Origin: an uncultured Acidimicrobiia bacterium
GTDB taxonomy: Bacteria > Actinomycetota > Acidimicrobiia > Spongiisociales > Spongiisociaceae
NCBI GenBank assembly: GCA_964516495.1
Contig: CAZEZF010000001.1
Span: 10,041 to 74,040, forward strand
Direction of reading: 5' to 3'
Length of the DNA: 64,000 nt
Shown here: piece after piece, positions 7,068 through 56,956 of the stretch
How the letters are laid out: each line of letters opens with the position of its first letter
Numbering within the stretch: position 1 is the stretch's first letter
The notes under the pieces: model-generated
The model's input: only the letters and a program-made list of their open reading frames with translations
Database searches by the model: none
What the model was told of the DNA's origin: nothing
Translations under genes and position numbers: made by a program

Positions 7068-7099
7068 TGTGTTCCTCTTGGTCATCGTTCCTCCCTTGG

Positions 7100-9881: not shown

Positions 9882-10029
9882 CTCAGCCCCGATTTTTTAT
9901 GCAGGGGTTTGAATGGGTAACCGAGAGAGATGCAAAGAACTCTCTGACCTGGGCGGATAGCCGCTTGGTGGGCTTGGCGCGGCCTTTTAGGGTTCGGTGT
10001 GTCCGGGCATGAAGAAGAATCAGGGCTAG
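9882..10029 (+). repeat. interspersed repeat family copy A (short variant lacking most of the central segment)
   Basis: 5' ctcagccccgattttttatGCAGGGGTTTGAATGGGTAACCGAGAGAG... 3' ...cttggcgcGGCCTTTTaGGGTTCGGTGTGTCcGGGCATGAAGAAGAATCAGGGCTAG. It aligns with the copies at 24201, 41536, 42991, 48764 and 56752. Confidence 0.85.
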
Positions 10030-24200: not shown

Positions 24201-24408
24201 CTTAACCCCGATTTTAACGCAGGGGTTTGAATGGATAACCGAGAGAGACGCAATGAACTCTCTGACCTGGGAAAATAGCTGTTTGACGGCCTCGCCTGTC
24301 CGGAGGGCGCCCTTCACCTGTAGGGTGATCGCCTGACACGCCGTGAAGATACGTTTGACGCGGCCTTTTCGAGGTCGGTATGACGGGGCATGAAGAATTG
24401 GGGTTAAC
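24201..24408 (+). repeat. interspersed repeat family copy B
   Basis: cttaaccccgattttaacGCAGGGGTTTGAATGGATAACCGAGAGAG...TTTGACGCGGCCTTTTCGAGGTCGGTATGACGGGGCATGAAGAATTGGGGTTAAC. It lies between the pafB start (24082) and the pafA stop (24511). Confidence 0.85.
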
Positions 24409-31817: not shown

Positions 31818-32437
31818 TTCTCAGGTGGAACCTATCGATAGAACTCCGGCCAGCAACGTTAGGACCATGCCTGCCACCGTAAACCAGACGACAATCTGTA
31901 CCCATCTAGGAGTGCGTCTCATGAGGTCCTACTTTAGGCGAGCGCCGAGCAAACGGTGATCGGGTAGGTCCGATGCGCCCATGAGTGGCCGACTATGGAG
32001 TCGCTCGACCGGAGCGTCTCGGAAGCCGCTGACTGAGATCGTCCTTGTGGAAAAGACAGGACGGACACCGGACCCGCTACTCTCGGTAGGATGAAGTACG
32101 GGTATGGAGGAGGGATTATCAAAGGGATCGGTTATGTGCTGCGCGGGCTGGCGGCAGGTCGCAAAGTGCGTGTTCTCGTGGGAGTGGCCATGATCCTTAT
32201 CCGCCTGATGGGCCGCTCTCGACGAACCGGAATTGCTCATCTGGTGCTTGAGAAGGGCCGGAGCGCGGCCTTCCGCGTCACGGGCCCCGGTTCTGATCCG
32301 GTCAGTTTCCGTGTAGACCGGACCGACTGATCCGTTTGGCTACCGGATTATCGACCGATGTATGCGAGCGCCGAACCGGTGTCCGGAATCTTCATTTCTT
32401 GCATCGTGTGGGTCGGTGTCGTATCGGGCGGACCGAT

Positions 32438-41314: not shown

Positions 41315-41535
41315 TGCAGGATAACGGGCCTTCCGGAGTAGGGCCTGATCGGCGGGTCAACGCCGGAAACCATGCTACATGCTGTGGCTTCCCATTCGAT
41401 ATGAAGTTGATTGGTCTCGAATGCTAGTACTAGATATATTAGATAGCAGTATATTATAAACCCGTATGTTCTGTTCAAGCCGCTGTACCCGGTCACCGTT
41501 TCGCCGGATGGCAAGACATCCTCTACGCCATGGTT

Positions 41536-41746
41536 TAAACCTGATTCTTTACGCCCCTGTCACACCGAACTCAAAAAGGCCGCGTCAAGCCCACCACTTT
41601 TGCGCCGCGTCAAGAGATCACCCTGCGGGTGAAGGGTCACACTTCGACCGGGTGAGGCCGCCATCAGCTATCTTCCCAGGTCAGGGAGTTCATTGCATCT
41701 CTCTCGGTTACCCATCCAAACCCCTGCGTAAAAAATTGGGTTTGAG
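41536..41746 (-). repeat. interspersed repeat family copy C (reverse orientation)
   Basis: Reverse complement reads caaacccaattttttacGCAGGGGTTTGGATGGGTAACCGAGAGAG...GCTTGACGCGGCCTTTTTGAGTTCGGTGTGACAGGGGCGTAAAGAATCAGGTTTAAA. Its 5' terminus overlaps the start of the tadE-like gene. Confidence 0.85.
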
Positions 41747-42113
41747 AGGCGAATCGGGTGGAACCTCGGTGGAGTTCTTGGTGGCGATCATGACTGTGCT
41801 GGTCGTGATGGTGTTCTTGTTCAACGCTATCTTCATGCTGTACGCCAGGTCCGTAGCCCACCACGCCGCCTACCTCGGCGCCCGCAGCGCCGCCCGTCCG
41901 GGTGGAAGCGAGGCTTCGTGCGAGTCGGTTGTAGGCGCCACCTTCGAGTCACTCGCCTCCATGTACGCCGATGACACCTCAGTGCGGTGTATAAGGGGTT
42001 CGACCGTTACCTCGGCCACGGTCCGCGCCGACCTGGGTCCCGTATTCGGTGACCTGGGACCGCGGTGGCGATTCACCATCCGCGGTTCCGCCGTGACGGA
42101 GCCGTTCTCTTGA
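41736..42113 (+). CDS. TadE-like pseudopilin family protein
   Basis: TTG start. GGTSVEFLVAIMTVLVVMVF matches the TadE N-terminal motif (V/A-E-F then a TM segment). Confidence 0.6.
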   Translation: MGLRGESGGTSVEFLVAIMTVLVVMVFLFNAIFMLYARSVAHHAAYLGARSAARPGGSEASCESVVGATFESLASMYADDTSVRCIRGSTVTSATVRADLGPVFGDLGPRWRFTIRGSAVTEPFS

Positions 42114-42136
42114 CCTTCGAGAGGCGCCTATTCAGG

Positions 42137-42556
42137 ATGCATCATCAAGAGGGCGCCGGCGCTGTCGAGTTGGTCCTGGCGGTGGCCTTGCTGATGTTCC
42201 CGATCTCCCTGTTGCTGCTGACCCTACCCATCCTGGCGGAGTATCGTTCGGTCGGCGACGCGGCGGCTCGAGAAGCTACCCGAGCCTGCGCCATCGCGAA
42301 CAACCCGCAGAGCGGGACGGAGAACTCCGAGCGTATTGTCCGGCGAATCATCGCCGAACGAGGCCTGGCGACCGAGGACACAACCGTCGAAACCGACTGT
42401 GCGACTGCGTGGAGACCCGGCGGGGTAGTCACCGTTTCGGTCTCGTTTCAAGTACCGGCCATGCAGCTCCCCGGGATCGGTGAAGTCGGGAGGATGACGA
42501 TCCGGCGCACCTATTCCGAACGTATAGAGTTCTACCGGAGCGAGCCGAGCCGATGA
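42137..42556 (+). CDS. TadE-like pseudopilin family protein 2
   Basis: MHHQEGAGAVELVLAVALLMFPISLLLL has the same N-terminal motif class. Start chosen at ATG 42137. Confidence 0.55.
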   Translation: MHHQEGAGAVELVLAVALLMFPISLLLLTLPILAEYRSVGDAAAREATRACAIANNPQSGTENSERIVRRIIAERGLATEDTTVETDCATAWRPGGVVTVSVSFQVPAMQLPGIGEVGRMTIRRTYSERIEFYRSEPSR

Positions 42557-42990
42557 AGAACGTCGGACGCAGAGGGTTGACCGAGGAGAGTGGTTCCGTC
42601 ACTCTGTGGGTCCTGGGTTTCGTAATGGTTCTGTTCTTCGCAGGGGCTCTGACCATGGATATGTGGCGGGTGGTTTCCTATCACGGAACGTTGGTGGGAA
42701 TCGCCGACAAGGCGGCAATTGCCGGAGCGACCCGGATAGATGTCGAGTCGCTGTACGGCAACCTCATCGTGTTGGTTCCCGAGGGCGCCGAAAGAGCGGC
42801 GAAGGACTTCGCCCGAAGCCAACCTCACTGGGATGAAGAGTCCATGACGGTCCTGGCCTACGCCGATCGATCACAGGTGTCGGTAGAGGTGACCGGAATC
42901 GTTCAACTCAGCCTGTTCAAACTCTTCGCGCCGTCCCGGGGAATCGTCTTGAACGTTCGGAGCGACGCCTCTCCGGCAATCTTCACCTAA
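42553..42990 (+). CDS. TadG-like (Tad_N domain) pilus-assembly protein
   Basis: ESGSVTLWVLGFVMVLFFAGALTMDMWRVVSYHGTL matches the Flp-pilus TadG-like N-terminal domain. It overlaps the previous gene by 4 nt. Confidence 0.6.
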   Translation: MKNVGRRGLTEESGSVTLWVLGFVMVLFFAGALTMDMWRVVSYHGTLVGIADKAAIAGATRIDVESLYGNLIVLVPEGAERAAKDFARSQPHWDEESMTVLAYADRSQVSVEVTGIVQLSLFKLFAPSRGIVLNVRSDASPAIFT

Positions 42991-43199
42991 CTAACCCCAA
43001 TTTTTCATGCAGGGGTTTGGATGGGTAACCGAGAGAGGTGAAATTAACCACATGACCTGGGAAGATAGCTGCGTGACGGCCTCGTCTGGACGGGGCGCCC
43101 CTATCACCCGGAGGTGAAGGCCGGGACATCCCGTGAAAGTGGGCTTGACGTGGCCTTTTTGAGTTCGGTGTGTCTGGGGCATGAAGAATCAGTGCTAAC
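42991..43199 (+). repeat. interspersed repeat family copy D (forward, starts 1 nt after the tadG-like stop)
   Basis: ctaaccccaatttttcatGCAGGGGTTTGGATGGGTAACCGAGAGAG...GCTTGACGTGGCCTTTTTGAGTTCGGTGTGTCTGGGGCATGAAGAATCAGTGCTAAC. It is inverted relative to copy C. Confidence 0.85.
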
Positions 43200-43234
43200 T
43201 ACAGACCGGTCGTGTGCGGGGAGACACAAACCGA

Positions 43235-43483
43235 CTATTCGCCGGCCGGGGAAGCCTTTCGGGTCTCTCGGTCGGTGTTCTGTTCTGTCTGGTTGGTCGA
43301 GCGGCGCCAAGAGGTGAACAAAGGGCCCATCAGGGCGGCGCCGATCAGGATCACCACTGTAGGTAGGAACCACCTGGGAATGGAAAACAGCCATCCTCGT
43401 ACCGGGAAGGCGATCCAGGCTGCCAGCAGGATCAGGATCGAACCGAACAGTAGCGAGAATATGTTGAACGGGTGGCGTTTCAT
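43235..43483 (-). CDS. small two-TM membrane protein downstream of the PspC-domain gene
   Basis: MKRHPFNIFSLLFGSILILLAAWIAFPVRGWLFSIPRWFLPTVVILIGAALMGPLF.... The ORF-track 174-aa version has an Arg/Pro-rich extension that overlaps the next gene. Confidence 0.4.
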   Translation of the reverse strand: MKRHPFNIFSLLFGSILILLAAWIAFPVRGWLFSIPRWFLPTVVILIGAALMGPLFTSWRRSTNQTEQNTDRETRKASPAGE

Positions 43484-43505
43484 TTGCGCTCCTCCTTGCC
43501 CACGA

Positions 43506-44870
43506 TCACATACCCCTACCCGAGCCGGAAGTCCGGCGATTGGAGGGGGCGAAGGTGTGGTGAATCGAATGGCGGTCGTGAATCGAATGGTTTGAATACG
43601 AGTCGGATCGCCTCCATCCGCTGTCGGACAGGTGAGACGTCCCTTCGGCGCCGGGCCGGTACGCGTCGGTATCGAAGTACTGTCGGCCGTCCATTGACCG
43701 GGTGACGACCCTGATCTGTCCGATTCCCGCATTGGCGCGGATCCGTAACTCCCCATCATGTCCGGCTAGCGTGTGTCGAGAGTGGACTCCGAAACCGCCC
43801 CGCGTCCGGTCGTTGACGCTCAAGCTACCGATACCGACCTCCCCATAAACCACCGCCGACACGTCTTCGGGGAGATAGACCAGCACCTCCCCTATTCCCA
43901 CTTCCATCTCTGTCTCAACTGTCCGCCCGGCGAAGTCAACCTCCCGGAGGTCGATCTCCAACGTACCGATGACCAGCTCGTATTCGCTGCGTATGTACTC
44001 CACGGATGTGATCCGATGGTAGGAATGTACGGTCTCGAAAGAACCGCGACCGATGGAAGAGTCGCCGTCAACGAGGTCCGCCAGCGGGGAGAGCAGGAGG
44101 AATGGAATCACGAGTACTCCCAGAACCGCCAAGCCGCCGGTACGACCGAACCAAGCCCCGATGACCAGCCCGATTCCGATGACTGCTACCAGCAATGCCA
44201 GGTAGTGGCGGGGTAAGGGATGGAAACCGGGAACCACCGCATCGAGCAGGCCGAGGACGCCTAACGCCAGCACTCCGCCTCCCAGCGTCACCCGACCGAG
44301 GTAGGAGGTTTCCTTTTCCTTTGCCGGTGGAGGGATCGGTGGATCCACCGCCTCGGTATCGGGTAGGCTTTCGGTCGAGGGAACCGCTTCTTCCTTACCT
44401 TCGTCGACGCCCTCGACAGCGGGAGGTGGGGTCGGCGTCGACGCTTCATCTATTCCGGTCTTGGAGGGAGCGTCATCCCCTCCATCACTCCGTTGGTCCA
44501 GGTCGCCGCGGTAGAGCATTACTCCCAGACCGATCAACACTACCGCGAAGGCCAGATCCACCCGGATCAGCCCGGTGCGGGAAGCCAGTATGACCACCGC
44601 GACACCAACGAGAATCACGCCCCACCAACGACGGGACTGGTCGGCGCCTAACCAGGTTTGAATGATCGCCTCGGTCTCGCCCTCTTTAGGGATCAGCAGC
44701 CATCCTGCAACGTACAGGAGAGCCCCCACCCCCCCGGCGAAGCAAAGTAGCAGGATGACGATCCTGATTATCCAGACGGGCGCCCCGAACCGTTTACCCA
44801 GACCGGTAGCGACTCCCGCCAGCCAGCGACCTTCGAGAGGCCGGTTTAGTGATGTAGTTGCGTTGCTCAT
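43506..44870 (-). CDS. PspC domain-containing membrane protein
   Basis: N-terminal PspC domain (RPLEGRWLAGVATGLGKRFGAPVWIIRIVILLL) then multiple TM segments, a Pro/Glu-rich linker and a C-terminal beta-rich domain. Confidence 0.7.
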   Translation of the reverse strand: MSNATTSLNRPLEGRWLAGVATGLGKRFGAPVWIIRIVILLLCFAGGVGALLYVAGWLLIPKEGETEAIIQTWLGADQSRRWWGVILVGVAVVILASRTGLIRVDLAFAVVLIGLGVMLYRGDLDQRSDGGDDAPSKTGIDEASTPTPPPAVEGVDEGKEEAVPSTESLPDTEAVDPPIPPPAKEKETSYLGRVTLGGGVLALGVLGLLDAVVPGFHPLPRHYLALLVAVIGIGLVIGAWFGRTGGLAVLGVLVIPFLLLSPLADLVDGDSSIGRGSFETVHSYHRITSVEYIRSEYELVIGTLEIDLREVDFAGRTVETEMEVGIGEVLVYLPEDVSAVVYGEVGIGSLSVNDRTRGGFGVHSRHTLAGHDGELRIRANAGIGQIRVVTRSMDGRQYFDTDAYRPGAEGTSHLSDSGWRRSDSYSNHSIHDRHSIHHTFAPSNRRTSGSGRGM

Positions 44871-44992
44871 GTTCCAACTATCGTCTGTCTGCGAAGATCT
44901 GGGTATAGGGGATCACCCTGAAGAATCCCTGTATCGGAAATGATCGGTACAGGTGCATTCCCCATTGTCGGACCCGGTCGGTTAGTGGGACA

Positions 44993-46192
44993 ATGACCTG
45001 TATGGAAACCGGCGGAACTTCTCGATCACAGCGCATCATCGGTAACCTTTCGAGAAGGCGGAACGGCCGCCTGATCGCGGGGGTGGCCGGAGGTATCGCC
45101 GACCGGCTCGGCGTGGCCGATCTCTACGTTCGGGCCGGTTTCCTGGCGCTGGCGCTCATCTGGGGTATCGGGATAATCGTCTACCTGGGGTTGTGGGCGA
45201 TCACTCTTGACCGAACCGAGGACTCGGAACCCCCCCGGAGTGAGGATGATCAGCAAAGGGCGGGTTTCCTGTTGGTGTTCGCCGGCGCCTTGCTGGTCTT
45301 GCGCACGCTCGGGATTTGGAGCGGAGATGGTCTGGTATGGCCGGGCGCGGCGGTGATTATTGGGGTCGCCTTCTTGATGGATCGGCGTGACATCGACCCC
45401 CCCACGGCCATCCTGGCCCAATTCGACCCGAACAGCGGACGCATCCGCACCCGCACTGTTATCGGGATGCTACTCCTGGTCGTCGGTCTATCCATCCTCG
45501 GCGCCACAGCCGGCCGGGCGGTTGAGACCGTGTTGCTGGCGGTTCTGGTTACCGGAGTGGGGATGGCGGTGCTGTTCGGTCCATGGGTATGGAGGCTGGT
45601 GGCGGACCTGGGCGCCGAGCGGGGTCGGCGGATCCGTGAGGAGGAGCGCGCCCGTATGGCCGCCCATCTGCACGACTCCGTCCTCCAGACCCTGGCTCTG
45701 ATCCAGCGGACGGATGATCCGCGGCGGGTGGTTACCCTGGCCCGGGTTCAGGAACGGGAGTTGCGTCGCTGGCTTTACGGTTCGACCCCGGAGGAAGGCC
45801 GGGATCTGCTGTCTCGCGTCTTGCAGAAGGAAGTGGACCGGATCGAGAAGAACTTCGACATCCCGGTGGAATTGGTGACGGTGGGTGATCGACCGATGGA
45901 CCGCCGGATACAGGCCATGGTGGCGGCGGCGGGTGAGGCGCTTACCAATGCCGCCCGGCATTCAGGCGCCCGGCAGATATCGATCTACTCCGAGGTGGAC
46001 GAAGACTCGACCGATATCTGGGTCTCCGATCTCGGCGAGGGCTTCGATTTGGGTCGGGTAGCCGCCGACCGGCGGGGTATAGCCGAATCGATCATCGCCA
46101 GGATGGAAAGCCACGGCGGGACCGCTCAGGTTGTTTCCGCACCGGGAGAAGGAACCGAGGTGCATCTTCGGCTGTCGGGGGAACCCGGATGA
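44993..46192 (+). CDS. sensor histidine kinase with N-terminal PspC domain (LiaS/VraS-like)
   Basis: PspC motif (RNGRLIAGVAGGIADRLGV), TM segments, HisKA_3 region (RMAAHLHDSVLQTL) and an HATPase_c C-terminus. Confidence 0.75.
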   Translation: MTCMETGGTSRSQRIIGNLSRRRNGRLIAGVAGGIADRLGVADLYVRAGFLALALIWGIGIIVYLGLWAITLDRTEDSEPPRSEDDQQRAGFLLVFAGALLVLRTLGIWSGDGLVWPGAAVIIGVAFLMDRRDIDPPTAILAQFDPNSGRIRTRTVIGMLLLVVGLSILGATAGRAVETVLLAVLVTGVGMAVLFGPWVWRLVADLGAERGRRIREEERARMAAHLHDSVLQTLALIQRTDDPRRVVTLARVQERELRRWLYGSTPEEGRDLLSRVLQKEVDRIEKNFDIPVELVTVGDRPMDRRIQAMVAAAGEALTNAARHSGARQISIYSEVDEDSTDIWVSDLGEGFDLGRVAADRRGIAESIIARMESHGGTAQVVSAPGEGTEVHLRLSGEPG

Positions 46193-46827
46193 TCCGCGTA
46201 TTGGTCGTGGACGATCACCGGATATTCCTGTCCGGCGTGGAGGCGGAGTTGACGGACAGGGATGGTATTACGGTGACCGGAACCGCCGAGGATGTGGATG
46301 TGGCCCTTGACTCCCTCCGGAGCGATCCTCCCGATGTGGCGCTCGTTGACGTCCATATGCCGGGCGGAGGCGGTCTCGCCATAGTCGAGAACCTCGGGGA
46401 GACCAATCCTGAAGTGAAGTTCTTGGCGCTCTCCGTCTCGGATGCGGCCGAGGATGTGATAGCTATGATCCGGGCCGGCGCCCGAGGGTATGTCACCAAG
46501 TCAATCGGTCCGGCGGAGTTGGCCGACGCGATACGGCGGGTACATGAAGGGGATGCGGTGTTCTCCCCCCGGTTGGCCGGGTTCGTCCTGGATGCCTTCT
46601 CGTCCGCTGTCCCGCCGCCGTCCGATCCGGAACTCGATCGGCTCACCGCGCGGGAGAAGGAGGTGCTGAGGCTTATTGCGCGCGGATATCCGTACAAGCA
46701 GGTGGCCAGGAGGCTCTACATCAGTGTCAAGACCGTCGAGTCCCACGTATCCTCGGTTCTGCGAAAACTCCAACTATCGAGTCGCTACGAACTGGCGCGT
46801 TGGGCGACCAAACGCCGGATGGTCTGA
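46189..46827 (+). CDS. LuxR/NarL family response regulator
   Basis: Receiver domain (VLVVDDH ... D ... K) then LuxR HTH LTAREKEVLRLIARGYPYKQVARRLYISVKTVESH. It overlaps the kinase by 4 nt. Confidence 0.85.
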   Translation: MIRVLVVDDHRIFLSGVEAELTDRDGITVTGTAEDVDVALDSLRSDPPDVALVDVHMPGGGGLAIVENLGETNPEVKFLALSVSDAAEDVIAMIRAGARGYVTKSIGPAELADAIRRVHEGDAVFSPRLAGFVLDAFSSAVPPPSDPELDRLTAREKEVLRLIARGYPYKQVARRLYISVKTVESHVSSVLRKLQLSSRYELARWATKRRMV

Positions 46828-47281
46828 TCGGCGGAGCTACTCGTCACTGAACAGTTGGCCGGCGATATCGGGTTGCCGATCTTGCCAGTACCGGGCGACG
46901 GTCTCCGCAAGCCCCGCGTCGCCCAGTTTGGCCGATAGCCAAGGGTCGTCCGCAACATCTCCGAAGGAACCCAGCGCCCGAACGATGTGGTACACGCTCT
47001 GATGACTTCTGCTCACGCCATACCGTAGGCAATACCAGTCCAAGCATCTGTATTGCGCCTGCCCGTCCCATCGTTTCGACACGCATCAGGTCGTAATAGT
47101 CGCGGAGTTCTCCTCGGTCGCCGATCACCTCCAACTTGGTCGCCACCACATCCGGGAAAGACCCGACCACCATCTTTCCTACCGTCTGAGCTCGCCCGAT
47201 CCGATACTGATCGGCGGCCGAGAGATACTGAACTTTACAGCGTGACGACGCATTACTCCATAAACGCATCGAGGTCGGCCA

Positions 47282-48676
47282 ATGCTTCCGTTGCGGGCTG
47301 CTAGGGTGCCGTTGGTGCGTAACTTCGACCTTTTGATCATCGGCGCAGGTTCGGGCAACTCGATCATCGGCCCCGAGCACGACGATTGGGATGTCGCCAT
47401 CGTCGAAAGCGGTCCCTTCGGAGGAACTTGTCTGAACGTCGGCTGCATCCCGTCCAAGATGTATGTGTACGCGGCTGAAATGGCGGAGTTGGCAGCGGAC
47501 GGGGAACGGTTGGGGGTTCATACCCGTTTCGACGGTGTTGACTGGCCCGCCATCCGGGACCGCATCTTCGGACGGATCGATCCGATCGCCGAGGGAGGCC
47601 GACACTACCGGGAGGGTCTTCCTAACGTAACGGTGTATTCGGGCGCGGGACGGTTTGTGGGTCCCAAGCAGGTGGAGGTCACCGGTGAGGTTATAACCGC
47701 GGCGCGGATAGTTGTCGCGGCCGGTGGACGACCCACCGCGCCTCCGGTACCGGGTCTGTCCGAGGCCGGTTACCACACCTCCGACACGATCATGCGGCTT
47801 GATGACCTGCCCGAGCGGCTGCTGGTGATCGGCGCCGGTTACATAGCCGCCGAGTTGGGGGGAGTCATGGGGGCTTTCGGCTCGAGAGTGACATTCCTGC
47901 TGAGAGGCGACACCTTCCTGCGTCGTGAGGACCGCGACATATCGAGCCGGTTCACCGCCGCCTACGCCAAGCGATTCGATGTCCGAACCCACACCCGGAT
48001 TATCGAGGTCCGCCGGGATGGACTCGAGGTCGTGATCGACTTGCTCGACGAGGAGGGGAACCCTACAGAGGTCAGGGGGGACGAGTTGCTGGTCGCAACC
48101 GGCCGCCGCCCCAATTCCGACCGGCTAGAGGTTGTTGCAGGGGGAATCGAGGTCGACCGGCGCGGCTTCGTGGTCACAGACGAACAACTTCGGACCAATG
48201 TAGATAGCGTGTGGGCGTTGGGCGATATCACCAACCCGATCCAGTTGAAACATGTCGCCAATCACGAGGCGCGGGTGGTCCGCCACAACCTGACCAATCC
48301 GGACAACCCCATGACCGTCGACCACCGCTACATCCCCCACGCCGTTTTCGGTTACCCCCAGATTGCGAGCGTCGGGCTGACCGAGGACGAATGTCGTAGC
48401 CGCGACATCCCTCACACGAGCCATGTGCAGCCCTTTGGAGCGGCGGCTTACGGTTGGGCGATGGAGGACTCCGACAGCGTGGCCAAGTTAATCGCCCACC
48501 CGGAGACCCGCCGACTGCTCGGCGCCCACATCATCGGTCCACAGGCCCCCACCCTCATCCAGCAGCTGATCCAAGGCATGCACTTCGATCTGACAGTCGA
48601 CCAGATGGCTAGCGGCCAGTACTACATCCACCCGGCCCTACCCGAGGTGGTTGAACAGGCCCTCCTGGAACTCTGA
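47282..48676 (+). CDS. mtr: mycothione reductase (class I pyridine nucleotide-disulfide oxidoreductase)
   Basis: FAD motif IIGAGSGNS, redox-active disulfide GGTCLNVGCIPSKM, near-identity blocks to mycobacterial Mtr (DITNPIQLKHVANHEARVVRHNL, YGWAMED, IHPALPEVVEQALLEL). The true start may be GTG a few codons in. Confidence 0.8.
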   Translation: MLPLRAARVPLVRNFDLLIIGAGSGNSIIGPEHDDWDVAIVESGPFGGTCLNVGCIPSKMYVYAAEMAELAADGERLGVHTRFDGVDWPAIRDRIFGRIDPIAEGGRHYREGLPNVTVYSGAGRFVGPKQVEVTGEVITAARIVVAAGGRPTAPPVPGLSEAGYHTSDTIMRLDDLPERLLVIGAGYIAAELGGVMGAFGSRVTFLLRGDTFLRREDRDISSRFTAAYAKRFDVRTHTRIIEVRRDGLEVVIDLLDEEGNPTEVRGDELLVATGRRPNSDRLEVVAGGIEVDRRGFVVTDEQLRTNVDSVWALGDITNPIQLKHVANHEARVVRHNLTNPDNPMTVDHRYIPHAVFGYPQIASVGLTEDECRSRDIPHTSHVQPFGAAAYGWAMEDSDSVAKLIAHPETRRLLGAHIIGPQAPTLIQQLIQGMHFDLTVDQMASGQYYIHPALPEVVEQALLEL

Positions 48677-48763
48677 CTGAAGCTCAAATTAGATCATCGC
48701 CGGTTAGCGGTTATCTGATTCCGGCTACGGCCCCTCCCCCGGGGAAGGCGTTGATCTCCGCAC

Positions 48764-48972
48764 CAGCTCCAATTTTTCACGCAGGGGTTTGATTGGGTTA
48801 GCCGAGAGATAGGCTAGGGACACCCCTGACTTGGGAGGATAGCTGCTTGGCGGCCTCTACTGGCCGGGGCGCCCCCATCACCCTGAGGTGAACGCCGGGA
48901 CGACCCACGATGCTGCGCTTGACGTGGCCTTTTTGGGTTCGGTGTTTCTGGGGCATGAAGAATACGGGCTAA
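48764..48972 (+). repeat. interspersed repeat family copy E (forward)
   Basis: cagctccaatttttcacGCAGGGGTTTGATTGGGTTAGCCGAGAGAT...GCTTGACGTGGCCTTTTTGGGTTCGGTGTTTCTGGGGCATGAAGAATACGGGCTAAT. Confidence 0.85.
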
Positions 48973-49019
48973 TCGCGCACGGCTTCTTGCGTTTCGCCGA
49001 CCGATCCCGGAGTCGTGTA

Positions 49020-50021
49020 TCATCCTGGTTGGGTATCCGGACCGGCGCGGCGACGCACTCTCCGCCTTCTGAGCGCGGCTCTGATAACGGGCCTCTCCAC
49101 CACCAACTCCAGGACCACGACCACTATCAGGACCGCGCCGGTGGCCAATGTCAGCACATAGAAGGGCGCTCCTCCGAGGCTGAGCCCGCTGGTGATGAAG
49201 CGGAGAGTGAGGGTACCGACTGCGATTCCTACCACCGAACCTTTACCTCCGAGGAGGCTGACTCCGCCGATCAATGCCGCCGCGGCCGCGGGGAGGAGCA
49301 ACTGCTCGAAGGCGGCCGGCCCGGCGCTTCCCGACTTGATGGAGGTGAGCGCCCCGGCAAGAGCCGCCATCGAACCGGACAGGGCAAAGGTCAGCACCAG
49401 TGGACGGACCAGCGGAACGCCCGCGGCGGCCGCCTCCTGTCGTCCCCCACCCGCCGCGTAGATCTCGCGACCCCAGCGGGTGTACACGAGGAACAGTCCG
49501 ACCATGACGAATACCAGGATGGTCACCAGGCTGAACGGTGAAAACAGCCACAGCTGCTGTCTCACGGAATCGGAGATGTCGAGGTTCTTCATGACCACCG
49601 TGTTCTCTCCCGAGATCATGAAGGCCAATCCCCGTAGCCCGATCAGCGTTCCGAGGGTGAAGACCAGGGAGTGGATCTTCAGACGATGGATCAGGTATCC
49701 CTGGATGGCGCCGTAGGCCAGGCCGAAGACGGTCGAAACGGCTACGGCCGCCGGCAGGCCGAGATCCTCCACGAGCGACACTGCGACGATGCCTGACACC
49801 GCCGCCACCGACCCTACCGAGAGGTCGAGTTCACCGGCGATAATCGTCAGACCCACCGCGAGAGCGGCCAGTCCCAGCCAGGCGAAACCCTCCAAGATCG
49901 TGAAGATGTTGTTGGTGGTCGCAAAGCGCCGGTCCACTATCGCGAATACGATGAACACCCCGACGAAGAGAGCCAACCGAGCCCAGACAATCGCCTCTAC
50001 CCGAGCAGTGAGTTCTTTCAC
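49020..50021 (-). CDS. sugar ABC transporter permease (second of pair)
   Basis: GTG start at 50021 overlaps the upstream stop (GTGA). The 170-aa N-terminal extension in the ORF track is Arg-rich out-of-frame overlap and was rejected. Confidence 0.75.
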   Translation of the reverse strand: MKELTARVEAIVWARLALFVGVFIVFAIVDRRFATTNNIFTILEGFAWLGLAALAVGLTIIAGELDLSVGSVAAVSGIVAVSLVEDLGLPAAVAVSTVFGLAYGAIQGYLIHRLKIHSLVFTLGTLIGLRGLAFMISGENTVVMKNLDISDSVRQQLWLFSPFSLVTILVFVMVGLFLVYTRWGREIYAAGGGRQEAAAAGVPLVRPLVLTFALSGSMAALAGALTSIKSGSAGPAAFEQLLLPAAAAALIGGVSLLGGKGSVVGIAVGTLTLRFITSGLSLGGAPFYVLTLATGAVLIVVVVLELVVERPVIRAALRRRRVRRRAGPDTQPG

Positions 50022-50995
50022 GCCAACCGCCTGCGGTTGCGGATGAGGGTGAAGGCGCTGACGCTCACCAGGATCGCCAACCCGACAAAGAAGACCCTGA
50101 CCCCGTAGCTGAAGCCGCGTAGCACCATCAGGTTCTGGAGCGCGGCGATGAACACCGCTCCGAGGGCGGTCCGGGTGGCGGATCCCTCTCCACCCTGGAT
50201 CGCGGCGCCACCCACCAGTATGGCGGCGATAGCGTCTATGTCGACGCCGTCGAAGTGATCGAGCCGTCCTTGGCTGAATTGGGCGGCGGTGAATATTCCT
50301 GCCATGGCGGCGCCCAACGATGAGACCAGAAAGACATAGATGGCGATCCTTCCGGGCCGAAGTCCGGCCGTCGTGGCTGCGAACCGGTTGGCCCCCACCA
50401 GCGTGACCTCGCGTCCGAAGCGGGTTCTGGTGAGAACCACTGCGGTGATGATCGTTATCAGGACGAAGGCCCAGGTCTGGTTGGGTATCTCCAGGGGGCG
50501 GGAGGTTCCGATCCATTCGGCCGCGTCGGTTCCCGTTCGAACCGTCTTGTTGTCGGTCAGCCAAGCCACCATGCCGAATATGACGGCGCCTACAGCGAGG
50601 GTCACCACGATCGGGTTGCCCCCCAAGGCGACGGCGCCACCCTGAATCACTCCGACCGCCGACGACAGCAGGACCACCGCCGCGATGGCCACCCAGACCG
50701 GGAATCCCCAGCTGAGAAACGCGGCGAAGGAGATCGCCGACATGGCGGCGGTCTGCGAGACGGAAAGCGAGAAGAAGCTACCGGCGATGGTGATTAACGT
50801 CATGGTCACCGCGACAATGCCGATCAGGGCGGCAGTTCGGACTATGGTCTGGAAGTTCCGGTAGGTCATGAACTCCGGCGTCGTGATCCAACCGACTATC
50901 CCCAGCAAGAGCACCGCGCCGATAACCGCCAAGGGGACGAACATCGAACGCGACAAGCCCGGTCCTCTTCCGACGGAGCGGCTGAGATCGCTCAT
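50018..50995 (-). CDS. sugar ABC transporter permease (first of pair)
   Basis: ATG start at 50995 overlaps the ATPase stop (ATGA). Start is MSDLSRSVGRGPGLSRSMFVPLAVIGAVLLL. Confidence 0.75.
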   Translation of the reverse strand: MSDLSRSVGRGPGLSRSMFVPLAVIGAVLLLGIVGWITTPEFMTYRNFQTIVRTAALIGIVAVTMTLITIAGSFFSLSVSQTAAMSAISFAAFLSWGFPVWVAIAAVVLLSSAVGVIQGGAVALGGNPIVVTLAVGAVIFGMVAWLTDNKTVRTGTDAAEWIGTSRPLEIPNQTWAFVLITIITAVVLTRTRFGREVTLVGANRFAATTAGLRPGRIAIYVFLVSSLGAAMAGIFTAAQFSQGRLDHFDGVDIDAIAAILVGGAAIQGGEGSATRTALGAVFIAALQNLMVLRGFSYGVRVFFVGLAILVSVSAFTLIRNRRRLA

Positions 50996-52518
50996 GTCTC
51001 CGCGCTCCGAGGATGGGTGATCTCGTGGATGAGGCGCCTTGAATCGGTCTCGGCCCGGTCGCGCTTGCTTACCTGGGCGCCGCGGAAGTAGGTAACCACG
51101 GTGTCTGCGATTCCCAGCACCTCCTGGGTGTCCGACGATGCGAACACGATACCCATACCCTCGGAGGCGATGGCTCGCAGGTGGCTGTAGATCTCGGCTC
51201 GCGCGCCCACATCGACCCCGCGGGTCGGCTCGTCGACCAGCAGCACCCTGGGGCGGGCGCCGGTCCACTTCCCCACCGCCACCTTCTGCTGATTCCCTCC
51301 GCTCAAAGTTCCTGCGAGAGAGCCCAACCGGGAGCGGTCGATGGTAAAGGTACGGGCGATGCGGTCGCTCATCGTCCGCTCGGCCCGCCTGCGTAGCCAA
51401 CCGGCGGTGGCCACCAGGCCGAGGCTGGGTGAGGTGAGGTTCTCTACCACTGTCCGCTGCAGGAAGATGCCGTCCCGCTTACGGTCTGCAGAGCTATAGC
51501 CGATACCGTTCTCGATAGCGGCTGCCGGTGAATCGGCCGGAACCGGGCTACCCGCCACCGTCACCGACCCGGACATCCGGGTTTCGTGGCCGGCTATAGC
51601 CTTCAGGGTCCCGCTGGCGCCGCTGCCGAGTTGTCCGGCCAACCCGACGATCTCACCGGAACGCACGTCGAGCCGGATCGGCGAAGCCAATCCTCGGGTG
51701 CGTAGGTCCCTTACCTCCAGTACGATCTCACCGTATTGCCGGTCGACCCGTTCCGGAAACAGCGCGGCCAGACTGCCTCCGAGCATCATGGAGATCAGGT
51801 CATCCAGCGAGATGCCGGCGGTGTCAACCGGAGCGTTGGACCGCCCGTCCCGAAACACCGTAACTCGGTCCGCCAACTCGAATACCTCGTCGAGACGGTG
51901 GGTTACATAGATGATCGATCGGCCCTCGTCCTGAAGTGACCGTACCACCGACTTCACCCTCTCGATTTCCCGGTCGGCCAAGGCGGCGGTCGGTTCGTCG
52001 AAGATCAGTACCCGCGCTTTCCTGGCCAGTAGTCGAGCTACCTCGATGAGTTGTCGTTCCGCGACCGTGAGCCGTTCGATCCGGAGAAGAGGGTCAAGAT
52101 CGCCCAGGCCTACCTGCGCTAGGAAGGGTGCGGCCGTTTCGGCCAGCTTTCCGGGTGCGGCGTTCCAGCCCCGCCTGGTGTCGCCCAGAAAGATGTTGTC
52201 GGCCACCGACAGGGTCGGTACCAGGGATAGCTCCTGCTGGACCACCGCGATACCGGCCTGTTCCGACCGGGTGGCCCCGCTGAACTCGACCTTCTCCCCG
52301 GCCAATGAAATGTGACCCTCGTCAGGGGTGTACATTCCGGCAAGTATCTTCACCAGGGTGCTCTTGCCCGCCCCGTTCTCCCCTACCAGAGCCATCACCT
52401 CACCGGAGCGCACCTCGAAATCCACCGAGTCGAGCGCCAGGATGGATCCGAAAGCCTTCGAGACCTCCCGCATCAGCAGTAGTGGGTGGGTGGGTGTCAC
52501 AGCTGTCCTTCCGGCCAT
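50992..52518 (-). CDS. sugar ABC transporter ATP-binding protein with two fused nucleotide-binding domains (RbsA/MglA-like)
   Basis: Two Walker A motifs (GENGAGKST and a degenerate second copy), two LSGG signatures, 508 aa. Confidence 0.85.
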   Translation of the reverse strand: MAGRTAVTPTHPLLLMREVSKAFGSILALDSVDFEVRSGEVMALVGENGAGKSTLVKILAGMYTPDEGHISLAGEKVEFSGATRSEQAGIAVVQQELSLVPTLSVADNIFLGDTRRGWNAAPGKLAETAAPFLAQVGLGDLDPLLRIERLTVAERQLIEVARLLARKARVLIFDEPTAALADREIERVKSVVRSLQDEGRSIIYVTHRLDEVFELADRVTVFRDGRSNAPVDTAGISLDDLISMMLGGSLAALFPERVDRQYGEIVLEVRDLRTRGLASPIRLDVRSGEIVGLAGQLGSGASGTLKAIAGHETRMSGSVTVAGSPVPADSPAAAIENGIGYSSADRKRDGIFLQRTVVENLTSPSLGLVATAGWLRRRAERTMSDRIARTFTIDRSRLGSLAGTLSGGNQQKVAVGKWTGARPRVLLVDEPTRGVDVGARAEIYSHLRAIASEGMGIVFASSDTQEVLGIADTVVTYFRGAQVSKRDRAETDSRRLIHEITHPRSAET

Positions 52519-53393
52519 CCGGCCCGGGACAGAACCTCGGTGGCCGCGTCAAAGGACACCCGGGCCGCCTCCAACGGATGCATGGCGGCCTGGCGGTCGG
52601 ACAGAACTTCTATACCCATGAGGGGGCGGGCCCCTGTTCCGGCGAGTTCTGCGAGGAATCCCGGAAGATCGAAGGCGCCCTGACCAGGAAGAAGGCGATG
52701 CCTCGTAGTGTCCAAGACCATATCGTCCAAGGGTGGGCCGGCATCGTTTAACGCCACCGCCAGGATCAGACGGGGGTCGACCACGGCCAGTTGGCCTCTG
52801 TGGGAAGGTCCGCGAAAGTAGTGCCAGGTGTCGAGGTCTATACCTGCGTTGTCCCGTCCGGCCAACTCGATGATCCTGGCGGCCGTTTCCAGATCAGGGA
52901 TCGATGTCCACGGCATGAACTCGATAGCCGCCTTCACTCCGAACTGCGCCAGCCGGTCACAAACCGCCCCGAAACGTTCGGCCACCAACCCGAGGGGCCG
53001 CCCCGGAGGGAAACGCACATCCCCGACGTTCACGTGATTAGGCCGGAAGACTTCGGCCATATGGTAGAGATTCTCCGCTATCGCCGCCGGCCTCTCGGCA
53101 TCCTCATCGTCGTGCATCCAATCGAACAGAAACTCGACTTCCGCCACCTCGACACCATGCCGGTCGAGGATCTCGATCATCTCCTCGTCTCCTACGCCCG
53201 AGGCGCGCATGCCCGAGTAGTCCGCCTCGCCCAACCCGATCGCTCGATAGCCGGCCGCGGCGGCCGCCTGCACCCTCACCTCGAAAGGCCAGGGCGACTT
53301 GGTACCGTACCCGGCGCCCACCGGCGAACCGGCGATCGTGAAATGGCCGGCGAATAGATCGAATCGGGGAACGGACTTATCGGTCGTGGTCAA
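52497..53393 (-). CDS. sugar phosphate isomerase/epimerase (xylose-isomerase-like TIM barrel)
   Basis: Metal-binding pattern of AP-endonuclease-2/xylose-isomerase-like TIM barrels (HVNVGD, EFMPW, DLDTWH). The start is uncertain and there is no ATG. A TTG at 53393 was chosen because the longer ORF would overlap the VOC gene by 125 nt. Confidence 0.55.
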   Translation of the reverse strand: MTTTDKSVPRFDLFAGHFTIAGSPVGAGYGTKSPWPFEVRVQAAAAAGYRAIGLGEADYSGMRASGVGDEEMIEILDRHGVEVAEVEFLFDWMHDDEDAERPAAIAENLYHMAEVFRPNHVNVGDVRFPPGRPLGLVAERFGAVCDRLAQFGVKAAIEFMPWTSIPDLETAARIIELAGRDNAGIDLDTWHYFRGPSHRGQLAVVDPRLILAVALNDAGPPLDDMVLDTTRHRLLPGQGAFDLPGFLAELAGTGARPLMGIEVLSDRQAAMHPLEAARVSFDAATEVLSRAGWPEGQL

Positions 53394-53487
53394 GACGGTT
53401 GTCCTGCCCGCGTCGATGGCCGGAGCGCTCCCGGGTGAGATAGGGCGGCGCCCGGACGCCGGCCTCGGATCACGAGCCAAGGAGTAA

Positions 53488-53958
53488 TCAGTCCAGCCAT
53501 TCCTCCCCGGCGAGCCAGGCCTCCATTCCAGGACGGCGACCGGCTTCGATGAACTCCAGGCGGGTCCCGTACAGTTCATCGGGGGAAGTGTAGGTGGCCA
53601 GGATGCGATCATCGGGCATGTATTGGGTGGCCTCGTTCTTCAAACCGAGGCCGACCAGCCGCTCGATCAAGGCCTCCGGATCAGGCTCCCACAACCCGAT
53701 ATGATGAAGGCCTTCCTGCTCGCGCCCGTAGAGACCGTCGCTGTCCTGGGATTCGAGCAACTCGAGGTAGGGAGGACCCTGTACAGACCAGGTGATACGA
53801 AGATCGAGTTCCTCCACTCTCGACTTCTGTTCGAATCGGTCGACATGGGCTATCGCCGGTTCCTTGAAGGTAAGCCCGAGTACATCGGCGAAGCGTTCTG
53901 TCGCCTCATCGAGATCGGGTACCAGAACCCCTACATGGAAGAGCCTGGTCGCCGTCAT
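53488..53958 (-). CDS. VOC (glyoxalase/bleomycin-resistance/dioxygenase) family protein
   Basis: 156 aa. N-terminal RLFHVGVLVPDLDEATERF is the typical VOC beta-alpha-beta-beta-beta module. Confidence 0.65.
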   Translation of the reverse strand: MTATRLFHVGVLVPDLDEATERFADVLGLTFKEPAIAHVDRFEQKSRVEELDLRITWSVQGPPYLELLESQDSDGLYGREQEGLHHIGLWEPDPEALIERLVGLGLKNEATQYMPDDRILATYTSPDELYGTRLEFIEAGRRPGMEAWLAGEEWLD

Positions 53959-54050
53959 CGTCCTTTGACACCTGTCATAGACATACCCCTTCCCTCACGC
54001 CCACGCCTTCATCCCCGCGCCGACATTCGAGGAATCCATCCTTTGAGCGG

Positions 54051-54099
54051 GGCGGGACGGCGATGGTGGAGGCCGCCGTCCCGCCGTATACCTTTTTTT
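54051..54099 (+). terminator. intrinsic-terminator-like hairpin on the plus strand (12-bp GC stem, 11-nt loop, then T7)
   Basis: ggcgggacggcg-atggtggaggc-cgccgtcccgcc gtatacc ttttttt, read directly. The T-run is 7 nt from the stem. There is no plus-strand gene upstream, and it faces the 3' end of the minus-strand substrate-binding-protein gene. Confidence 0.35.
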
Positions 54100-54108
54100 C
54101 GGCGCCCG

Positions 54109-55158
54109 TTAGTAGACGCAGAGGTCGGCGACGCCCAGGCCTTCCACCATTACGCTTTCGATCTCGTTCACTCCCGGTGTGTATACGGGGCTACGGACGG
54201 GCGGGTTGGGAATGAAGTTGTTGAAGCTCTCCAAACTGCCGTTGCTGAGATACTCGTGGAGGGTGTTCACGCTGAAGACCCCCTCGAGCCGGGCGGCCTG
54301 CAAACCGGTTGCGAACTCCGTTCCGTCGATCAGGTGGTCGAGATTCCCGTGGCAGGTGCCGCCGACGACCATCACGTCCTGGCCCGGGTGGTAGCCCTCC
54401 TCTTCAAGAGCCTGGATCACCCCTTCCGCAAGGGATGAGTTATGCGCGTAAACCAGGTCTATGCCGGCGTTGCGGTGGGCGGCGATCAACTGCTTGGTGC
54501 CGTCATATCCTTCCGCGGGTCCGAAACCGACATCGACCTCGCCCAGCACGCTGATGTTGGAGCGCGCCAGGATCGGCAGAGCCGCGCCGGACCGGTCGAT
54601 TCCGGCCTGGTAGCCCGCTACGAAGCCGATCACGATCGCATGTCCACCGGCGCCGTGAAGCTCCATGCCGTTGGCGACCATGTGGTCGCGAGCCTCGATG
54701 AGGAGGTTGGCGGCAACTTCGCCGTTGAGACGGTCGTTGACCCCCGCGTAGCCGACCACATAGTTCTCGGAGCCGGGGAATGGGAGCTGGTTGGTCTGGA
54801 TGACCGGAACCCCGGTGTCGGCCAAGGCTCTCAGGGATGCGACCCCCGCCTCGTTGTCGGATGGCCACCACGCATAGGCGACCACATCTTCGTCGGCGGC
54901 GCCCAGCTGCTGCTGAACCTGCGTGTCCTGTTCCGCCTGATCGAAGTTGTTCTCGACTATCACGAGGTTGTAACCCAGCGATGTGGCCGTCTCGTCGGCG
55001 CCGCGCGCCCATTCGGCAATGTATGTGTTGGTCGTCGTGGGAATGAAGGCGACTATGGTACCGCCCTCGGTGCTTTCGTCCTCGCTTGCACAACCGGTCG
55101 CCACCAGCGCCAGCGCCAACAACGCCGCCAGGACGGCCATATTCCGTCTATTTCGCAT
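54109..55158 (-). CDS. sugar ABC transporter substrate-binding lipoprotein (RbsB-like PBP1)
   Basis: Lipoprotein signal MRNRRNMAVLAALLALALVATGCASE followed by a PBP type 1 domain. Confidence 0.8.
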   Translation of the reverse strand: MRNRRNMAVLAALLALALVATGCASEDESTEGGTIVAFIPTTTNTYIAEWARGADETATSLGYNLVIVENNFDQAEQDTQVQQQLGAADEDVVAYAWWPSDNEAGVASLRALADTGVPVIQTNQLPFPGSENYVVGYAGVNDRLNGEVAANLLIEARDHMVANGMELHGAGGHAIVIGFVAGYQAGIDRSGAALPILARSNISVLGEVDVGFGPAEGYDGTKQLIAAHRNAGIDLVYAHNSSLAEGVIQALEEEGYHPGQDVMVVGGTCHGNLDHLIDGTEFATGLQAARLEGVFSVNTLHEYLSNGSLESFNNFIPNPPVRSPVYTPGVNEIESVMVEGLGVADLCVY

Positions 55159-55449
55159 GTTCCGGATCCTCCCTCACGGCCTGCTTCACGGTCCACTGAG
55201 CGGCGATCAGCCAGAAGCAAGACAGCGGCCTTGTGGACAACTTACGAGATTCTACCCGAAGGAGTAGGGCGTCGGCAGGGAATCAGGCCTATTCCTGACC
55301 CTTGTTCACAAGTGGCCGACAGGCCTCGGCTGCGAACGACACCCTATAGGTAACCGGCGTCAGTAGCGTTACCTGATCCGAGTGCGTTTGTAATCCTTCG
55401 GCAAGGGAATCACCCTGGGACGGGAGCGGGCCGATTCCCATGTGACGGC

Positions 55450-56718
55450 TCAGTACTCATTGGCCACCATCAATTCCTCGGCCGGGAAGAGCGTAACCAC
55501 CTTGGGTCCCTCCGCCGTACATACCACCTGCTCCTCGATCCGCGCCGCTGACCGTCCATCGGCAGCCGGGCAGAACGTCTCGAGCGCGAAGAACATACCC
55601 TCCTTCAACTCGATGGGGGTATCTATGGAGTTCAGGCGGCTGATCACCGGCCGCTCGTGAACGGCTAGACCGACGCCGTGGCCGAACTGGAGCCCGAAGG
55701 CCTCCATTTCGTCAGGGAAACCGAACTCATCCGCCTCGGGCCATGACCGGGCGATCTCATCGGTGGTGGTTCCGGGCTTGACGAGTGCAATCGCGGCGTC
55801 TATCCACTCCCGGGCCTTCTTGTATGCGTCACGTTGAGCCTGGGTCGCCCTTCCTACCACAAAGGTTCGGTAATAGCAGGTGCGGTAGCCGTTATAGGCC
55901 TGGATGATGTCGAAATAGGCGGTGTCGCCGGGACGGATGAGCCGGTCGGAAAAGACGTGTGGATGGGGACTGCATCGTTCCCCGGCGATCGAGTTTATGG
56001 CTTCCACATGTTCGGATCCCATCTCGTAGAGCCGCTTGTTGGCGAGCGCCACTATGTCCGATTCCCGCACGCCCGGCTTGAGCGCTTCGAATATATTCTG
56101 ATAGACCCCGTCTACCATCGCCGAGGCCTGGGTGAGAAGGGTGATCTCGTCCGAACTCTTGATCTCGCGCGCCGCCAGCATGGTCTGCTGGCCGTTCCTG
56201 ACTTCGATCCCGGCCCTTGCCAGTTCGAGGAACATCTCCGACTCGGCCATGTCGACACCGACGGGCATCCCGGCCACTCCCTCGTCGCGGAGAACCTCGG
56301 CTATTTCCCGTACCGCCCTGGTCACCAACCCGGTCTCGGGACCTATCGACCCCGCCAAACCGGTGTTGCCGCCTACCGATTGCTCCGGAACCAGCCAGGG
56401 GGCCTGCAGTTTGTGGACCCGAGCCGCGGATCCGAAATCCCAGATCCAGGGTTCGCCGGTCCGGGTCAGCAACGCCCAACGCTCCATCTTGTTAAACGCC
56501 CAGTAACCGATGTGGGTAGCGGTCAGGTAGCGGATGTTGGCGGTATCGAAGACGAGAAGCGCTCCCAGGTCGGACTCCTCCAGCGCCTGCCGCGCCCGTG
56601 ACAGCCGGTATGCGCGAAGCCGGTCGAAGTCGACCCGTTGCTCCCAGTCCACCCCCATCACTCCGGGGGAAGGAGTGGTGGCTACCGGGAACTCGGGCGC
56701 ACGCTCGGTGTTTTCCAT
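55450..56718 (-). CDS. M24 family metallopeptidase (Xaa-Pro aminopeptidase / creatinase-like)
   Basis: N-terminal creatinase-N domain plus C-terminal pita-bread fold with metal ligands (D..D..H..E..E pattern visible). Confidence 0.75.
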   Translation of the reverse strand: MENTERAPEFPVATTPSPGVMGVDWEQRVDFDRLRAYRLSRARQALEESDLGALLVFDTANIRYLTATHIGYWAFNKMERWALLTRTGEPWIWDFGSAARVHKLQAPWLVPEQSVGGNTGLAGSIGPETGLVTRAVREIAEVLRDEGVAGMPVGVDMAESEMFLELARAGIEVRNGQQTMLAAREIKSSDEITLLTQASAMVDGVYQNIFEALKPGVRESDIVALANKRLYEMGSEHVEAINSIAGERCSPHPHVFSDRLIRPGDTAYFDIIQAYNGYRTCYYRTFVVGRATQAQRDAYKKAREWIDAAIALVKPGTTTDEIARSWPEADEFGFPDEMEAFGLQFGHGVGLAVHERPVISRLNSIDTPIELKEGMFFALETFCPAADGRSAARIEEQVVCTAEGPKVVTLFPAEELMVANEY

Positions 56719-56751
56719 ACGGTACCTTTCGAATAGACGCTGATCAGGACT

Positions 56752-56956
56752 CTAGCCCTTATGCTTCTTCACGTCCCAGACACACCGAACCCGAAAAGGC
56801 CACGTCAAGCGCAGTATCGCGGCCCGTCGGGAGATCCCCCTACGGGTCGCTCTCCGATCAGGCGAGGCTGCGACGTAGCTATCCTCCCAGGTCAGAGAGT
56901 TCACCGCATCTCCCTCGGTTACCCATTCAAACCCCTGCGTGAAAACCTGGGGCTAA
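56752..56956 (-). repeat. interspersed repeat family copy F (reverse orientation)
   Basis: Reverse complement reads ttagccccaggttttcacGCAGGGGTTTGAATGGGTAACCGAGGGAG...GCTTGACGTGGCCTTTTCGGGTTCGGTGTGTCTGGGACGTGAAGAAGCATAAGGGCTAG. It lies between the M24 peptidase start (56718) and the ADH stop (56953). Confidence 0.85.

Follow-up and report, generated by a model that had tools for sequence, protein, structure and literature searches.

A MITE-like non-autonomous transposon family with complementary ends in an uncultured Acidimicrobiia bacterium

A 64,000-nt stretch of contig CAZEZF010000001.1 from an uncultured Acidimicrobiia bacterium (this whole stretch, 64 kb, is the window referred to throughout) carries six copies, A to F, of one repeat family of about 200 nt, found by repeat finding and a profile search, at a density of about one copy per 10 kb, from which a few hundred per genome would be expected. 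We conclude that this element is a non-autonomous transposon resembling a MITE (miniature inverted-repeat transposable element), of a previously undescribed family and an ordinary kind. It is small and non-coding, has terminal inverted repeats, occurs in dispersed and mostly intergenic copies, and differs in its insertions between related genomes; it shows the MITE features that we tested, the exceptions being a target duplication of defined length and an identified partner transposase. The account that we hold to be probable is that the element is mobilised in trans into TA targets, and that its two ends were matched in master lineages and decayed independently thereafter. The six window copies are as follows.

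Copy A: 9886..10026, plus strand; arms 9886-9902 and 10007-10026; from the nhmmer match and alignment; between the ROK regulator gene and recN, with about 65 central nt gone and a GAA insertion in the 3' arm.
Copy B: 24205..24404, plus strand; arms 24205-24220 and 24388-24404; flanks TTA...TAA.
Copy C: 41538..41742, minus strand; 5' arm 41726-41742, 3' arm 41538-41554.
Copy D: 42994..43195, plus strand; arms 42994-43010 and 43179-43195; starts 4 nt past the stop codon of the upstream Tad gene.
Copy E: 48766..48969, plus strand; arms 48766-48782 and 48953-48969; 90 nt downstream of the mycothione reductase gene.
Copy F: 56755..56953, minus strand; 5' arm 56937-56953, 3' arm 56755-56774 with a TAA insertion.

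With the exception of A, these copies are 199-205 nt long (full range 141-205 nt), and their internal sequences are 71-87% identical to one another. All are intergenic save C, which lies in the leader of a TadE-like open reading frame (ORF). When three further copies from a relative (G to I, described below) are included, three of the nine are oriented sense and six antisense to neighbouring genes, and internal deletions have been tolerated in A, F and I.

Each copy is bounded by imperfect terminal inverted repeats of 17 nt, of which the 5' one reads (A/G)CCCC(A/G)ATTTTTCAYGC and the 3' one GCRTGAAGAATCAGGG(C/T). The ends of copy D read TTTTTCATGCAGGGG (42994-43010) and GGGGCATGAAGAAT (43179-43195), those of copy C, on the minus strand, TTTTTTACGCAGGGG and GGGGCGTAAAGAAT, and those of copy F, likewise on the minus strand, TTTTCACGCAGGGG and GGGACGTGAAGAAG. 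A first-pass annotation of this DNA, which had drawn attention to the complementary ends of these three copies, quoted all of these strings exactly, and the complementarity that it saw is real: across the 17-pair terminal helix of the nine copies, 77% of cells hold standard pairs, versus 28-49% when the partners are slid by 1-3 columns. Directly outside the 3' end stands TA in all nine copies; the same dinucleotide stands outside the 5' end in six, with CA in its place in A, C and E. TA is thereby present at both ends in six of the nine, and if one more base per side is counted, YTAR-like tetranucleotides surround every copy. Copies B and D have identical flanking 4-mers, D reading CTAACTA at both sides. 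A profile of the element's single open (antisense) frame found no protein match at E<=10 among 5.8 billion sequences, and small size combined with no detectable coding capacity is a MITE feature. We rejected an assignment to the IS200/IS605 type: the terminal inverted repeats are genuine, and a weak local hairpin (CCCC...GGGG) is present at the 5' end only.

In the account that we prefer, the element would be a non-coding passenger, about 200 nt long, of a DNA transposase encoded elsewhere in the genome. It would move by cut-and-paste into TA-containing targets, which would be scarce in this host genome of 61% G+C and would often lie at or beside stop codons. The terminal complementarity would then simply be the inverted repeat, and the copies would be snapshots of a few master lineages whose ends had to match for mobility. 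After insertion the ends of a copy would decay independently, which would be the cause of the mismatches present in B, E and F, and any effect on neighbouring genes would be incidental. Descent from distinct master elements was one of three readings offered in the first-pass annotation, next to selection on an RNA closing helix and recognition of a DNA hairpin or cruciform, and it is the one with the most direct support: in the tree of internal sequences, D and E group together with 99% bootstrap and B and C with 77%, and the relative's subfamily, which has its own inner end (CATGG / CCTG), is separate.

Several observations weigh against this account. First, neither an autonomous element nor a transposase with these ends turned up in the window, in about 190 kb of related loci or in the exact-pattern scans of sequence collections, and there was no transposase gene among the Pfam matches listed for the related loci or in the ten window ORFs scanned. 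Second, target duplications of 2 bp (TA), 3 bp (TAR) and 4 bp (YTAR) all fit the flanks, and three copies have CA rather than TA on the 5' side. Third, if a transposase recognises each end separately, complementary double changes do not follow from this alone, so that the master-lineage account has to add a requirement, which we infer, that the ends match. Lastly, the full copies collected number only nine.

Relatives had to be reached via the flanking proteins, since the public collections scanned held no element. Exact-pattern scans for conserved element cores in genome, metagenome and viral contigs gave none among the matches listed, the host and its close relatives being absent from those collections, and blastn of the element against a plasmid collection gave no match. 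Homologues of RecN and mycothione reductase came from metagenome-assembled genomes labelled Acidimicrobiia or Acidimicrobiaceae by their sources. The closest relative genome, the long-read ENA assembly ERZ25069711 (80% amino acid identity in RecN, 86% in mycothione reductase), holds in 43 kb three full copies of a diverged subfamily, the internal identity of which to the window copies is 40-56%.

Copy G: L002, 3826-4040, minus strand.
Copy H: L009, 15941-16154, plus strand.
Copy I: L009, 19351-19552, plus strand.

In a second, 75% relative (L003) only remnants are present.

L003, 11626-11669: solo 5'-end remnant of 44 nt, immediately after recN.
L003, 3875-4018: partial 3' half, after a diacylglycerol kinase gene.

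The family therefore predates the divergence of these lineages. No copies are present in the more distant relatives L004, L005 and L010-L013.

Orthologous sites can be compared. L009 is syntenic with the window from 37 to 59 kb, and the sites of C, D and E correspond there to spacers of 78, 90 and 128 nt with no element match; conversely, L009 carries copy H, and the corresponding window site near 53.4 kb, which aligns well, is without an element. Such insertion polymorphism at orthologous sites is evidence of mobility. At the same time, the same intergenic neighbourhoods have been struck in different genomes. Copy F in the window and copy I in L009 occupy the identical spot, 33 nt from the start codon of an M24 peptidase gene and between this gene and an alcohol dehydrogenase gene, in opposite orientation, as members of different subfamilies and with the outer flanks CTAG...CTAA in both. 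In both genomes the element's terminal base, added to the flanking TA, makes up the alcohol dehydrogenase stop codon TAG (window 56953-56955, where the first base of copy F, a G, completes it; L009 19546-19548). We considered that F and I may be one ancestral insertion, later flipped in place; independent insertion into the stop-codon TA by elements with G...C ends explains both junctions without extra assumptions. F and I are 44% identical to each other, versus 76-86% for F and 61% for I when each is compared with the copies of its own genome.

The coincidence of F and I, together with the presence of both window copy A and the L003 remnant downstream of recN, is also what would be expected if the repeat were not mobile at all and represented small RNA genes or regulatory sites at fixed genomic positions. 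We find this very hard to credit, given that F and I differ in orientation and subfamily and are each nearer to the copies of their own genome, that the sites of C, D, E and H differ in occupancy between the two genomes, that copy A tolerates a 65-nt central deletion and another copy lies inside a coding leader, and that the element has no Rfam match.

Two further observations concern the element's own surroundings. Upstream of copy G (L002 4041-4055, in element orientation) stands TTCAATCAGGCCTA, which resembles the element 3' end CAATCAGGGTTA, and ATCAGGC occurs again just past copy G's own 3' end; the sequence before copy G may be the remnant of an older, abutting copy. In addition, the organism of the window is represented in the Logan assemblies of three sequencing runs, and all of the contigs recovered (L001, L006, L007 and L008) end within an element copy, as is expected of short-read contigs that meet a dispersed repeat. 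The metagenomes SRR8304783, SRR8304785 and SRR22586461 contain this species. In the tail of L007 the sequence switches, after GGCCGGGG, to that of another copy. The repeat breaks up short-read assemblies and can produce chimeric joins, and fragmentation by so dense a family matters for binning or annotating these genomes.

We next turn to whether the two ends of a copy change together. Covariation was measured on an alignment of the termini only, comprising all nine copies after removal of the 3-nt insertions that A and F carry. Paired cells make up 77.0% versus 72.4 +/- 1.4% in column shuffles (0 of 500 reach the observed value); five pairs are changed on both sides versus 2.6 expected (reached by 23 of 500 shuffles); and the covariation score is 0.160 versus 0.109 in shuffles (reached by 3 of 500). 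In pair-count shuffles of this kind, when the sequences are related, 5-25% of unconstrained cases can exceed every shuffle. When whole 3' arms were permuted exactly among the six window copies, the own-arm Watson-Crick count was reached in 29 of 720 arrangements (P 0.04), and in 58 of 720 (P 0.08) without the outermost pair, which is possibly target sequence. Neutral simulations were made tree-aware by running them on the tree of internal sequences, with the rate set to match the arm diversity observed and the transition bias set to 2 or 4; in some of them partner positions also had hot spots in common. The simulations reached the own-arm excess in 0.03-0.8% of runs with all 17 pairs and in 0.9-2.6% without the outermost pair; the corresponding ranges over all measures were 0.03-9% and 0.8-13%, that is, a simulated P from about 0.0003 to 0.13, depending on measure and null. 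At roughly the 1-10% level, these results speak against independent neutral decay of the two ends.

Copy C supplies most of this signal. Its stem is the best of all, with 14 Watson-Crick pairs and one G.U among the 17, and it differs from D at three pairs (positions 1, 12 and 14), each of which is changed on both sides; the change at arm position 1, from C-G to A-T, is a double transversion unique to C. The inner five pairs of the remaining window copies are less regular: B has AACGC / GCATG with two mismatches, E has CACGC / GCATG with a C.A mismatch at the variable pyrimidine/purine (Y/R) position, the innermost pair of F is C.A, and A shows a T.G wobble. Most copies keep the mismatches at arm positions 4 (C.A) and 5 (A.C), and T.G at arm position 9 is common to all six window copies. 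The difference between the subfamilies, CATGC / GCATG versus CATGG / CCTG, preserves pairing only with a bulged T and is not a clean compensatory change.

Two statements of the first-pass annotation have to be qualified in this light. That each copy co-varies agrees with the five double-changed pairs, but not with the mismatches in B, E and F or the wobble in A; the annotation had cited C, D and F only, and B and E are the counter-examples that it omitted. That independent decay would not have kept the ends complementary holds insofar as such decay is disfavoured at the level given above, but the effect is modest and mostly that of copy C. The end covariation, an observation picked by eye, is best called suggestive.

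It is conceivable, if unlikely, that there is no real signal here, and that a few transitions which arose in parallel at mirrored hot spots, in the palindromic CpG of CACGC/GCGTG, were combined with a post-hoc choice, among the six copies, of the three most favourable. On the tree, the path implied for the Y/R position runs from T-A to C.A, followed by reversion in D and compensation in C and F. Since any transition at either site restores a pair from a C.A intermediate, as it does from T.G, this position alone weighs little; by our own count the six copies have T-A twice, C-G twice, C.A twice and T.G not at all, which is near the prediction from independent frequencies. The 58 of 720 permutations without the outermost pair, a simulated P of 0.02-0.13 with shared hot spots and the ease with which related sequences beat shuffles all point the same way. 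They have to be set against the own-arm Watson-Crick excess, reached in no more than 0.9-2.6% of simulations even without the outermost pair, and against the double transversion at position 1 of copy C, which is no transition hot spot.

Alternatively, the ends of each copy might be actively kept complementary by a process that depends on their pairing, either a hairpin transposition intermediate with single-stranded ends or templated correction of one arm by the other. We regard this as unlikely; if true, the family would be a natural record of such maintenance in an uncultured actinobacterial lineage. Quasi-palindrome template-switch mutagenesis is established in Escherichia coli, and in its purely mutational form the idea is that the arms pair in single-stranded DNA, whereupon template switching or hairpin mismatch repair copies a change across, with complementarity restored to no function. 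The unshared double transversion at position 1 of copy C is easier to obtain as one templated event than as two independent hits, and the own-arm pairing excess holds up against tree-aware simulations that include shared hot spots. Yet three inherited mismatches (positions 4, 5 and 9) have gone uncorrected in most copies, B, E and F have acquired or kept others, and the arms lie about 170 nt apart, far beyond classical quasi-palindrome hot spots. This functionless variant is, in our judgement, distinctly unlikely.

The first-pass annotation had also proposed a transcribed RNA whose ends pair into a closing helix. In such a scheme the MITE would be co-transcribed with its neighbours, the repeats would pair, and the resulting helix would be processed or stabilised, whether by an enzyme such as RNase III (the case of Correia elements) or in the way proposed for bcr1, with selection on the RNA stem keeping the ends complementary. 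For both strands of copy C, the minimum-free-energy fold and the centroid fold do contain the terminal helix, the paths of change run via wobble or mismatch (position 12, C-G to T.G to T-A; position 14, T-A to C.A to C-G), and the covariation excess lies above neutral simulations. Correia transcripts are cleaved by RNase III at the paired inverted repeats (PMC10969869, PMC2649163), and base-pair compensatory changes have been reported to maintain an RNA-level stem in bcr1 (PMC3184786); stem covariation in bacterial MITE-like repeats therefore has precedent.

Against an RNA stem stands a series of results from the element itself. Rfam found no match in the window at the gathering score, and with an E-value threshold it gave only a chance match of 12.7 bits to an archaeal C/D-box snoRNA model. 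Folding z-scores relative to shuffles are -0.54 and -0.28 for D and -0.05 and -1.61 for C (-0.62 with DNA parameters), so that the stability of single-sequence folds is within shuffle noise. The RNAalifold covariation term is +3.45, which is unfavourable; only the terminal helix is supported, and all five double changes are confined to it. We accordingly rejected a whole-element RNA structure, in which the internal helix proposed by RNAalifold is G.U-rich and without support. Three copies lie sense and six antisense to the flanking genes, and promoter-like and terminator-like sites in the copies are at shuffle expectation, with no enrichment. An internal terminator was likewise rejected: GGGCTTGACGYGGCC-TTTTT in C, D and E is terminator-like, the stems are weak and such sites are not above shuffles. 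Finally, conserved mismatches interrupt the stem at positions 4 and 5 on the plus strand and at position 9 (T.G) on the minus strand; neither strand is therefore favoured. We see no specific support for an RNA and do not regard the element as a structured RNA gene, and selection on an RNA stem is in our view clearly improbable as the reason for the matching ends. If end-matching held in hundreds of copies, these would form a data set that separates RNA-level selection from DNA-level templated correction.

A second structural claim concerned a small internal hairpin with a variable loop.

Copy D, 43104..43117, plus strand: mini-hairpin TCACC-CGGA-GGTGA.
The same motif elsewhere: copy B, 24314-24328; copy C, 41618-41632 (minus strand); copy E, 48878-48891.

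The four strings that had been quoted for it, from B, C, D and E, are exact, and TCACC-N4-5-GGTGA is present in H as well; G has one mismatch in it, F and I have it degraded, and A has it deleted. Its interpretation as a conserved structure is not supported. Its stem is either invariant or broken and never carries a compensatory change, and 63-67% of shuffled elements contain one or more 5-bp hairpins with a loop of 3-8 nt, so that the motif is no more than chance gives. The mini-hairpin is conserved sequence, not evidence of structure.

Copy C has become part of a reading frame.

TadE-like ORF: 41466..42113, plus strand; reads through copy C in the element's open antisense frame.

This ORF encodes 215 aa, versus 144-146 aa in relatives (144 aa in the ortholog of the closest relative), and the extra 71 residues are copy C translated, placed in the leader just ahead of the conserved segment GGTSVEFLVAI. 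Either the in-frame insertion is tolerated, or the true start is now a TTG within the inverted repeat; the leader that carries copy C is probably dispensable. By our own estimate, one open frame in a G+C-rich element of 200 nt is expected by chance in about 40% of cases. The element thus inflates at least one ORF call, that of the TadE-like gene.

The family can be placed next to several known systems. MITEs derived from IS630/Tc1-mariner (pneumococcal RUP, eukaryotic Stowaway) and from IS5/PIF-Harbinger (Tourist) insert at TA or TWA/YTAR with a duplication of 2-4 bp. The present element resembles both in its short inverted repeats, its TA-type target and the mobilisation in trans that we propose for it. 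Its flanks fit TA, TAR and YTAR duplications alike, and it is not assignable to a superfamily because the partner transposase was not found. With the Correia elements of Neisseria (CREE/NEMIS) it shares small size, lack of coding, intergenic location, end repeats able to pair as a long stem and TA insertion. This likeness is one of description. The host phylum differs, the length is about 200 nt here versus 100-155 nt, and the inverted repeat is 17 nt here and 26 nt in Correia elements. The present family, unlike Correia, is also known from its DNA alone, with no transcription, RNase III processing, integration host factor (IHF) site or outward promoters in evidence.

For the covariation of the ends, the closest precedent, again likened by description, is bcr1, a repeat of about 155 bp in the Bacillus cereus group that is MITE-like, has direct repeats at its flanks and is not conserved in its distribution over genomes (PMC3184786). 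It differs in being transcribed, in its 5-bp direct repeats and in its unrelated host, the flanks here being centred on TA and the evidence here being at the DNA level. Rickettsia palindromic elements (RPE) insert in frame into genes (PMC10969869). Copy C is similar in that it is read through in frame and adds 71 residues to the TadE-like protein; unlike in RPE, the in-frame case is a single one among nine copies and lies in the probably dispensable leader. A full-text literature search for MITEs in Acidimicrobiia found no paper, and the element adds a new MITE family to this poorly studied, uncultured lineage.

Some minor features of these loci are recorded here. Two small inserted islands lie near recN in relatives, where the neighbourhood is otherwise syntenic.

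L004, 3795-7217: island in the syntenic recN neighbourhood, with a UvrD-like helicase, DarT and an ADP-ribosylglycohydrolase.
L002, 6455-7167: island near recN, with a FitA-like/PIN toxin-antitoxin pair.

Within the window itself, a direct repeat and a tRNA gene were observed.

Window, 4874-5173 and 5882-6181: direct repeat of 300 nt, 100% identical, spacing 1008 nt.
Window, 32238-32310, plus strand: tRNA-Gly, anticodon TCC.

Both units of the direct repeat lie within one ORF (4872-7133, minus strand), the orthologs of which in relatives are proteins of about 727 aa with periplasmic-binding-protein domains; the repeat either arose very recently, by internal duplication or gene conversion, or is an artefact of assembly. 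The tRNA-Gly gene is the sole tRNA of the window and bears no relation to the repeat family.

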